From positions 1-64,000 of IMG/VR virus record IMGVR_UViG_3300027749_000055: DNA of 64,000 nt; one strand, 5' to 3'. Both the position numbers and the translations under genes were made by a program. Origin of the DNA: a virus. Positions 305 to 47,122 of the stretch are shown in pieces. Numbering within the stretch: position 1 is the stretch's first letter; each line of letters starts with the position of its first letter. Below the pieces are notes generated by a model that ran no database searches, was not told the DNA's origin, and was given only the letters and a program-made list of their open reading frames with translations.

Positions 305-517
305 CTACATAAGCAGTTGAAGACGCTCTACGTCTACGCCAGCCTCGGCTAAGTCCTTTAGGCGTGGCTTGATGTAGCCATACTTCTGACTGATGATGAC
401 GGTCTTCAGGGGTGCGCTCACTATGTAGTGCGCCCCGTTGAATCTCGTCTCTAAGCCGTATTTGCGTATGGCTTTGAGAAGTCTGCGTAGTTCGTTGTTG
501 GCGACTTTACTTGTCAT
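305..517 (-). CDS. HicA-like small protein
   Basis: 70 aa with helix then G-x-H (NGAHYIV) strand pattern typical of the HicA fold; start overlaps upstream ORF. Confidence 0.5.
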   Translation of the reverse strand: MTSKVANNELRRLLKAIRKYGLETRFNGAHYIVSAPLKTVIISQKYGYIKPRLKDLAEAGVDVERLQLLM

Positions 518-674
518 TAGTGCCGTCTTTGTGTTCGGGGAATAGCCCGCTTACAAAGACAGCCATTCCGCCGATTGACTCAATGAATTCGACTTCGCTG
601 GCTAGGGCTTCTTCAAGCCTTGCGAGGTTGGACGGGTGGCGCAACTTTGCCTGTGATTCTTCTTGCGTGTTCAT
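507..674 (-). CDS. hypothetical 55-aa protein (MNTQEESQAKLRHP...), below the ORF-track cutoff
   Basis: Translated by hand; ATG at 674 preceded by ATAGGAGGAACC RBS and a promoter at 708-724. Confidence 0.7.
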   Translation of the reverse strand: MNTQEESQAKLRHPSNLARLEEALASEVEFIESIGGMAVFVSGLFPEHKDGTNDK

Positions 675-707
675 TGGTTCCTCCTATGGTTAGACACTTC
701 TACTACG

Positions 708-724
708 AGTGTACCACAGTTGAG
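708..724 (-). promoter_or_regulatory. promoter with CTCAACTGTGG-TACACT motif
   Basis: Extended -10 preceded by the recurrent CAAC box. Confidence 0.6.
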
Positions 725-744
725 TAACAAGTGGTGGATAGATA

Positions 745-803
745 CAACAAAGCCCCCGCCGAAACGGGGACTTGTCGCACCAGAGAAAGGAGGAACCCTA
801 GTG
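745..803 (-). ncRNA. putative anti-SD small RNA 1
   Basis: TTGACG-N16-TAGTGT promoter (836-809); CACTAG/CTGGTG hairpin with loop GGTTCCTCCTTTCT; intrinsic terminator 772-745. Confidence 0.5.
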
Positions 804-842
804 GGACAACACTACGACGGTTTGCTCATACGTCAATAAGTG

Positions 843-1448
843 TTAGTCGCTGAGACGCTTCCTCTGAGCGGGTGCTTGCTCTATCAGGGAATCAAGTTTG
901 CTCATTACGTCGTCCGTATTCGGCGTTTCCAATTCAAGCGTGGAATCTGGCTCGACCACCTCCGCCTCAATGACGTTGTATCCCGACGGCAGAATCGCTC
1001 GCTCGCTGAGTAGGGCTTCAATCTTGCGGTTCACGCTGGAAGCGTCAATTTCAATTGCTCCGCCGTCTGCGCCCGTAATCTCGGTGCGAGATACTCGACC
1101 CCAATCACGGGGGTTTGTGCGCTCTAGATACCACGCAGCGGCTTGCCACGTCTCGTTAGCGGCTTGTCGAATCTTCTCGACGGACTTGATTTCTGCCCAA
1201 GCCCGTGCCTTTTCTACTTCCACGGCAAACCAAACGAACAGTTGTTCGGTTTCGTCCAATTCACGGTCTTCTGCCTCGAAAGAAAGTGTGTTTCCCTTGC
1301 GAACCCACGCCGTAATGGAGGCTGGTGTAATCCCGACGTAGGCGGCTGCGGTGGCTAGGTAATTGCCACGCTTCAGGAGGTCAATAATGGCGTTTGCCAT
1401 TTCCTCGTTGAGAATTGAGGGTCGCCCGCCCTTAGTGTTCTTTGCCAT
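843..1448 (-). CDS. terminase small subunit
   Basis: GGRPS start, HTH, WQAAAWYLER and EITGADGGAI motifs typical of TerS. Confidence 0.8.
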   Translation of the reverse strand: MAKNTKGGRPSILNEEMANAIIDLLKRGNYLATAAAYVGITPASITAWVRKGNTLSFEAEDRELDETEQLFVWFAVEVEKARAWAEIKSVEKIRQAANETWQAAAWYLERTNPRDWGRVSRTEITGADGGAIEIDASSVNRKIEALLSERAILPSGYNVIEAEVVEPDSTLELETPNTDDVMSKLDSLIEQAPAQRKRLSD

Positions 1449-12501: not shown

Positions 12502-12645
12502 AGCCCCCCCCTGATTGGTTGCACCCACTCTACCAGAGTTGATGATTTGTGGTCAAGTGTTATTTGCCCCTAGCCCAAAATCCAGCAATAAACCCAGTGG
12601 TGCTAGAAATGAATGAGGAAAGCACGACGATAGCGGTGTGCGACA

Positions 12646-15539: not shown

Positions 15540-15610
15540 AAAAAAGAGGGGTGGCACGACAACGAGATAGGAGGAACCTATTGCGTGTCTGTTTGCCCCG
15601 CTGCCGTGCC
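15540..15610 (-). ncRNA. putative anti-SD small RNA 2
   Basis: TTGCAG-N17-TACACT promoter (15645-15617); 14-bp stem 15610-15597/15566-15553 enclosing GGTTCCTCCTAT; T-tract end. Confidence 0.55.
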
Positions 15611-15657
15611 GATAACAGTGTATCAGGGTTGAGTACCAACTGCAAGTTATTTATTAG

Positions 15658-23880: not shown

Positions 23881-23900
23881 TGTCTGTTCCTCCTTGGGAA

Positions 23901-26489: not shown

Positions 26490-26518
26490 TTGCAATCTTC
26501 ACTCAACCATAGTAGAGT
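26490..26518 (+). promoter_or_regulatory. rightward promoter with CAAC box
   Basis: TTGCAA-N17-TAGAGT with CTCAACC in the spacer. Confidence 0.7.
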
Positions 26519-26557
26519 TCACTACGTCACAACGACACGGACGCAAGGAGGAACCAA

Positions 26558-47060: not shown

Positions 47061-47122
47061 ATGTGGTTCCTCCTTTGAAGCAACGAGTGAATCCTAGCAT
47101 ACTTATCAACCCCCATCAAGTA

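Follow-up and report, generated by a model that had tools for sequence, protein, structure and literature searches.

What is encoded by the short intergenic stretch at positions 745-836, near the left end of this phage genome? The window analysed here covers the leftmost 64 kb of a 113,659-base IMG/VR virus contig; the contig, of a freshwater lake phage, is estimated to be 91% complete. The original prediction placed a minus-strand promoter, an RNA of about 60 nt with a hairpin loop, and a terminator in this stretch and read them as a trans-acting translational repressor; the sequence features that it named were all present. As judged from its sequence, 745-836 is probably a non-coding RNA element of the minus strand. 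Because its hairpin loop mirrors the strongest ribosome-binding sites (RBSs) of the phage itself, the element probably blocks translation from these sites.

Anatomy of the minus-strand element

The genes of the window lie nearly all on the minus strand, as does every gene neighbouring 745-836. The element is located between a gene for a terminase-small-subunit-like (TerS-like)/HTH protein upstream (843-1448, minus strand; PHROG 4102, E = 4e-30), in whose 3′ untranslated region it lies, and a 55-aa ORF downstream (507-674, minus strand). The cultured-phage matches to the TerS-like protein were 14 Arthrobacter-phage records only. Two WhiB-family genes scored above the Pfam cut-off, at genome positions 83410-83622 and 89104-89286 (both minus strand), and among 14 control genomes this family was found in Corynebacterium only. 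Because of the two WhiB genes and the Arthrobacter-phage matches of the TerS-like gene, the host of the phage is likely actinobacterial.

Along the minus strand, the stop codon of the TerS-like gene (845-843) is followed by a promoter-like sequence termed P1 (836-809), a predicted RNA start at A802, a hairpin (803-778), a terminator (773-750) with a U-rich tail, a second promoter-like sequence termed P2 (724-708), an RBS (685-676) and the ATG at 674 of the 55-aa ORF. P1 reads TTGACG-N16-TAGTGT, with 5/6 and 3/6 matches to the consensus. Its -35-like hexamer TTGACG (831-836) lies 6 nt past the TerS-like stop codon and was unchanged in all four close relatives compared below (contigs L115, X4, X6 and X9). 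Its -10-like hexamer TAGTGT (809-814) is TAGAGT in three other haplotypes; the -10 in the phage's own promoter family likewise reads TAGAGT. The promoter originally proposed is present in its hexamers, which are kept in relatives, but its score is under the cut-off of the consensus scan, which called none here. P1 is not of the CTCAAC promoter class of the phage. The RNA start at A802 is predicted from the spacing of P1 only.

The minimum-energy hairpin pairs 803-796 with 785-778 (CACUAGGG/CUCUGGUG) and encloses the 10-nt loop UUCCUCCUUU (795-786), which was unpaired with a probability of about 1 in the predicted short RNA at equilibrium folding. While the anti-Shine-Dalgarno (anti-SD) loop was present as described, the stem GUCCCAC/GUGCGAC assigned to it earlier was replaced by the minimum-energy stem. 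The anti-SD sequence GGUUCCUCCUUUCU lies at 797-784 of the minus strand. The seed GGUUCCUCCU (797-788), drawn from the 10-nt loop together with the stem bases GG, is complementary to AGGAGGAACC at every position. The location in a hairpin loop is not unusual in itself, CCTCC being not enriched in hairpin loops (23/121 versus 21-34 for control 5-mers). The terminator was called by the scan at 773-750, in agreement with the prediction. It consists of a 10-pair stem (6 G-C) with a UUCG loop and the tail UGUUGUAUCU (749-740), the whole spanning 740-773. The tail has 5 U in 8, with the U tract broken by a G. Stem-loop and tail together have the make-up of an intrinsic terminator; on the plus strand the same stem has no U tract.

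Two further features had not been described before. P2 (CTCAACTGTGGTACACT, 708-724), which was found by promoter-family search between the terminator and the RBS of the 55-aa gene, belongs to the family CTCAAC(C/T)-N4-TA(G/C)A(G/C)T. Its -10 is TATACT in L115, which still reads TAnnnT. As a separate promoter of the 55-aa gene, P2 would drive this gene without the anti-SD. The second feature is the RBS of the same gene, AGGAGGAACC at 676-685 (ATG 674-672), which is a perfect 10-nt complement of the hairpin seed and lies 100 nt downstream of it on the same strand.

The whole window was compared with Rfam 15, where two tRNAs alone passed the gathering threshold and the element matched no family (6C, RsaE/RoxS and C4 included). 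When 640-900 was searched at E up to 10, sub-threshold matches of 13-15 bits only were obtained; those to RsmY, rnk leader and rdlD cover little beyond the terminator, and that to istR spans 748-845.

Ribosome-binding sites mirrored by the loop

The sequence AGGAGGAACC, read on the plus strand at 788-797, occurs in 5 copies in the window versus 0.06 expected, and AGGAGGAAC in nine copies in the genome. Seven of the nine are RBSs placed 1-5 nt before the start codon of ORFs of 55-190 codons, with gene starts at 674, 23880, 26558 and 47060 in the window and at 89975, 94517 and 103342 outside it. The remaining two (788 and 15569) are oriented against all local genes. The seed matches each of the seven RBSs exactly over 9-12 nt, and the three matches reported earlier, of 12 nt at 47065-47076, 11 nt at 26545-26555 and 10 nt at 23886-23895, were all correct. 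By its sequence, AGGAGGAACC is the strongest RBS of the phage's own. A strong SD was found in ~27/133 large ORFs (a rough count), and most phage genes look leaderless or devoid of a strong SD.

Five of the seven AGGAGGAAC genes stand behind a promoter of the CTCAAC family, and the seven include genes for a gamma-glutamyl-cyclotransferase-like protein and a DUF7246 protein. These genes look like self-promoted accessory cassettes. The promoter family, written in full as (TTGCnn-N6-)CTCAAC(C/T)-N4-TA(G/C)A(G/C)T, has 13 members in the genome. Besides P2 (724-708, minus strand), the members in the window are at 12541, 15633, 19492 and 23941 on the minus strand and at 26502 and 63066 on the plus strand; those in the rest of the genome are at 84654, 86016, 103385 and 113217 on the minus strand and at 89933 and 91766 on the plus strand. 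They are located before accessory genes and before two protein-less units (at 15.6 and 63.1 kb); in some cases a leaderless start follows them directly. The same motif was seen before orthologous genes in the relatives G001 and G002. The RBS of the gamma-glutamyl-cyclotransferase-like gene sits in the loop of a 6-pair hairpin, the stem of which holds the start codon (AGCCAC...AUGGCU; genome 89950-89979, L211:5950-5979).

The loop had also been equated with the actinobacterial 16S 3′ end. The sequence GGATCACCTCCTTTCT was indeed found in Actinomycetota, but it is not specific to them and is also present in Bacillota, Alphaproteobacteria, Planctomycetota and others. A loop UUCCUCCUUUCU that imitates the anti-SD tail might serve as a decoy, soaking up a binding or cutting factor such as an anti-SD-cleaving toxin of host defence. 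Three such loops exist in the one phage genome, and CCUCCUUUCU is the 16S tail of many bacteria including Actinomycetota, both in keeping with a decoy. Among mycobacterial MazF toxins, some cleave the anti-SD at UCCUU. However, the two best copies extend the match with GGUU, and no such factor is known for the uncultured host. Because the GGUU extension fits the flank AACC of the phage RBSs and not the 16S sequence (AUCACCUCC), the idea of a 16S mimic adds little by this comparison, and we consider a decoy very unlikely.

Pairing between loop and RBS was predicted within transcripts and between RNAs. The minimum-energy fold of 655-845 (minus strand) includes the anti-SD:SD pairing. In read-through RNA, whether it originates at P1 or in the upstream operon, each of the ten anti-SD:SD pairs had a probability of 0.81-1.0 at equilibrium folding. 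The SD of the 55-aa gene was unpaired at 0.01-0.02 in this RNA versus 0.58 in the RNA from P2. In predicted dimers, the seed paired with all seven RBSs at ddG values of -5 to -12 kcal/mol, the adjacent 55-aa gene having the best value of all targets; random control windows gave -2.4 +/- 2.3 kcal/mol, and 4.7% of them reached -7. The open loop, the exact RBS matches and the dimer ddG together provide the accessible seed of a trans-encoded SD-occluding sRNA. The layout is of the c4 type, the anti-SD (797-788) being located upstream of the target SD (685-676) with both on the minus strand. When duplexes with a 22-nt seed were scanned genome-wide, the result was too noisy for target ranking. Because of the folding and dimer predictions, SD occlusion by RNA pairing was adopted as the reading of the element.

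Such occlusion might operate in cis only. The anti-SD would then solely fold away the RBS of the 55-aa gene and the overlapping 70-aa gene on transcripts reading through from the upstream operon or from P1, translation would come from P2 transcripts only, and no trans RNA would be involved. Cis action is favoured because of the geometry, with a perfect same-strand partner at short distance and P2 placed exactly between both partners, and because no assumption on RNA abundance is needed. The near-complete pairing in read-through RNA, compared with the open SD in P2 RNA, and the best ddG of the adjacent target are also in its favour. On the other hand, P1 with its conserved hexamers directly before the hairpin would be superfluous to a purely local insulator, and six other RBSs also match the seed. 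That the element works in cis only is thought to be unlikely.

Conservation, strand and further copies

Relatives were sought by two protein-guided scans of viral contigs and one scan of metagenome contigs, and the sole close contig was the metagenome contig L115 (93% identical over 650 nt). It was compared together with Logan DNA contigs of the runs X4, X6 and X9. The contigs of X4 and X6 cover all of 743-806 and that of X9 covers it from 756, and no variant was seen where covered. In this core, where the predicted start site lies together with hairpin and terminator, 0/64 positions were changed versus 13/104 in the intergenic flanks (Fisher one-sided p = 0.0014), in haplotypes that are few, closely related and probably not independent of each other. 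For the terminator part, conservation would be expected in any case; 743-773 was unchanged in the relatives, and position 742 was A>T in X4 and L115. Taken by itself, the hairpin half (774-806, 33 nt) showed 0 changes versus about 4 expected at the flank rate. Eight changes were found in 807-842, two of them (838-839) just upstream of the -35 and six others that were examined (807, 811, 817, 821, 824 and 828). These six fall in the discriminator, in the spacer (817, 821, 824 and 828) and in the variable middle of the -10, where TAGTGT becomes TAGAGT. The -35 hexamer was left intact, as were T-A...T within the -10.

The same comparison bears on the strand. In the alternative named by the original prediction, the plus strand carries an SD-like sequence followed by a 12-codon ORF from GTG 801 (801-839). 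This ORF exists in the window, the AGGAGGAACC-CTA-GTG spacing is ideal, and the SD, GTG and GGA all lie within the invariant core. However, 807 C>T (CAA to TAA) makes a stop at codon 3 in L115, X4 and X9, leaving 2 codons, and X6 carries two non-synonymous changes (811 and 817). The neighbouring genes being all on the minus strand also speaks against the peptide, as do the unremarkable plus-strand fold (z = -1.6) and the result that no plus-strand promoter of the phage family was found before 26502. The peptide was rejected because its ORF is broken or altered in relatives, and such a gene is extremely improbable. Comparison of the haplotypes supports the minus-strand RNA over the plus-strand peptide.

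A second copy of the hairpin is present at 15559-15584, with an identical 10-nt loop and the same 8-pair stem built from different letters. When its stem was anchored on the 10-mer, 15/16 cells were paired and five pairs were changed on both sides, compared with 44-62% paired in slid controls. The two copies share loop and fold, yet none of the five outer stem pairs is the same, a pattern pointing to selection on structure, and the compensatory pairs, counted between two sequences (n = 2), are suggestive. The copies at 788 and 15569 also share flanks that are absent from real RBSs, reading GAGA-N-10mer-(C)TA on the plus strand. The second copy has a canonical promoter of the family. A third anti-SD loop, UUACCUCCUUUCCUA, was found in a terminator-like structure after the gene at 84.1 kb. 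This structure (genome 83990-84090, minus strand, after the gene ending at 84133) has three helices and an inner loop AAAGUUACCUCCUUUCCUA, followed by a long U tract. Neither the second copy nor the third loop (about 84.0 kb) has a matching RBS downstream, a further point against action in cis only.

The second anti-SD unit (15540-15645; promoter and hairpins, about 100 nt) is missing from contig L082. The ParB-like protein of L082 is 95% identical, and its start lies almost immediately after the tRNA-Gln gene. The second copy is an insertion/deletion polymorphism, as would be expected of a mobile or neutral cassette too.

Among more distant relatives, the element was not found past the TerS-like gene of G001 (complete, 121 kb), G002, G005, L116 or L333; TerS identity is 48-59% in G001, G002, G005 and L333. 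It was absent in every examined relative with a TerS-like protein at ≤59% identity, and there is consequently no deep covariation. The TerS-like homologues P0003-P0005 are 72-79% identical. An exact-pattern scan of viral contigs for the core found none, and megablast against cultured phages gave no match. Seed and fold are invariant in four close haplotypes and one paralogue carries five compensatory pairs, while the element was absent from all more distant relatives examined. The AGGAGGAACC class of RBS was not found in G001 or G002. Three target genes are shared with these genomes, and for the two with readable starts the orthologues have the same promoter type with other SDs or are leaderless. 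Since G001 and G002 are without the RBS class and without the elements, both appear together in one lineage.

These observations also bear on whether the element has any regulatory role. It might be neutral or merely structural, either as an accessory 3′-end structure of the TerS-like mRNA or as the relic of an inverted promoter-RBS cassette that marks recombination joints in variable regions; the conservation among near-identical strains would then reflect the terminator and a short divergence time. This would agree with the confinement to one lineage, with the presence or absence of the second copy between 95%-identical strains, with a loop display that is not enriched over control words, and with the promoter-plus-stem-loop cassettes known from T4-type phages. 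It is at odds with the unchanged hairpin half, with two copies that keep loop and fold through different outer stem pairs, and with the joint absence of RBS class and elements in relatives. A lack of any regulatory role is regarded as improbable.

Proposed action and related RNAs

We infer that the element is transcribed and acts on translation in the following way. P1, as a sigma-A-type promoter, would start an RNA of about 58 nt near A802, and the same sequence would also terminate the mRNA of the TerS-like gene. The RNA would consist of one hairpin with an open anti-SD loop and the intrinsic terminator. Pairing of the loop to the SD would hide the SD from the 30S subunit and lower the translation of the AGGAGGAACC gene class, with the strongest effect on the adjacent 55-aa/70-aa unit. 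Transcripts reading through the terminator would hold both partners and fold the RBS of the 55-aa gene away, while P2 transcripts, which are without the anti-SD, would remain open except where the small RNA acts on them in trans. An SD-occluding sRNA acting in trans, with an additional effect in cis, is our tentative preference, held at somewhat below an even chance. The trans component is favoured because of P1, the seven sites that match and a second copy that has no partner in cis. If this is true, phages of Actinobacteria would control a defined class of their own genes via short anti-SD hairpin RNAs and a shared RBS. It would be a compact timing device, and the lack of a cultured host would not prevent its reconstruction in a model actinobacterium by means of reporters.

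A more far-reaching version is conceivable, in which AGGAGGAACC is a private RBS 'barcode' on about seven accessory genes and is read by two or three small-RNA loops. This class, and perhaps SD-led mRNAs of the host, would be switched off by RNA, and genes with weak SDs or leaderless starts would stay translated. We hold this version to be quite doubtful. If it were true, the phage would have built an RNA-based translational timing switch in an actinobacterial host.

The element was compared with known RNAs. The 6C sRNA of Mycobacterium and other Actinobacteria is described as working without an RNA chaperone (PMC6486639). It is similar in coming from the same host phylum and in being a short RNA, the C-rich loops of which are described as pairing with G-rich mRNA sites by G-C pairs (PMC6486639). 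Together with the WhiB genes and the Arthrobacter-phage relatives, this indicates that the type of host fits chaperone-independent sRNAs with C-rich loops. However, there is no sequence or structure match to 6C (Rfam), and 6C has two loops where the phage element has one. The element also differs in being phage-encoded, in its full anti-SD loop with the phage-specific GGUU and in its proposed targets, which are the phage's own genes.

The c4 antisense RNA, the gene of which lies upstream of its single target and is oriented like it, is excised from the leader of the operon. In phages P1 and P7, its loops are reported to pair around the RBS of a phage mRNA and to block translation (Citron and Schuster 1990, via PMC12197685). 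Our element is similar in being phage RNA with a loop pairing at an RBS and in the upstream, same-orientation layout. It has no Rfam match to c4, and it differs in having its own promoter, in being separated from its target by a terminator and a second promoter, and in matching six sites besides this target. To our knowledge, base-pairing small RNAs of lytic phages have been little studied. The examples of base-pairing sRNAs presented in PMC12197685 come mainly from temperate phages of enterobacteria.

Other RNAs share the C-rich loop or the cassette-like arrangement. C-rich loops that pair with SD regions and repress translation are known from SprX (RsaOR) of Staphylococcus aureus (PMC4005690) and from sRNAs of the RsaE/RoxS and RNAIII type. 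The pairing of a C-rich loop with the SD is common to these RNAs and the element, but they belong to another host phylum and show no homology. SprX, which is carried by a phage-derived element, and RNAs of its type use UCCC motifs, whereas the phage hairpin uses 10-12 nt that complement a single RBS class exactly. Promoter-early stem-loop (PeSL) cassettes occur in T4-type phages. They resemble the element in that a promoter and a stem-loop are linked within a variable region; here the second copy is present or absent between close strains. P1, in contrast, is outside the main promoter class of this phage, and we know of no PeSL loops that are RBS complements. By this comparison, the element would act in the manner of C-rich-loop sRNAs from Gram-positive bacteria; the closest system in terms of host is the 6C sRNA and the layout resembles c4, with the element itself in none of these families.

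The nearest candidate target is a two-gene unit (305-674, minus strand), in which the 55-aa ORF (507-674) overlaps a 70-aa ORF (305-517) by 11 nt. No Pfam, PHROG or PADLOC family was found for either protein. The 55-aa product is acidic and polar. The 70-aa orphan protein is composed of a helix, four strands and two helices, with a G-A-H motif present, and sequence homologues outside its own cluster were not found. Its fold is weakly HicA-like (TM 0.64 to a HicA cluster in the ESM Atlas), and the best match by Foldseek against the PDB, 1whz, was not significant (E = 0.3). A type I toxin-antitoxin pair was also considered and rejected: the 55-aa protein is not a small hydrophobic toxin, and the 70-aa protein gave the weak HicA-like fold signal only.

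Compared with L115, the 55-aa gene differs at 34/168 positions (~20%) and by a 6-nt deletion, and the overlapping 70-aa gene at 8/202 positions. The 55-aa gene is either fast-evolving or weakly constrained, as far as this comparison suggests. The contigs of X4, X6 and X9 depart from the window sequence at 1427, within the first codons of the TerS-like gene. Those of X4 and X9 also depart at about 303-305, just beyond the 70-aa gene, and L115 diverges left of about 300. The departures at 1427 and 303-305 look like recombination boundaries around a conserved block that extends from the TerS-like gene to the 70-aa gene.
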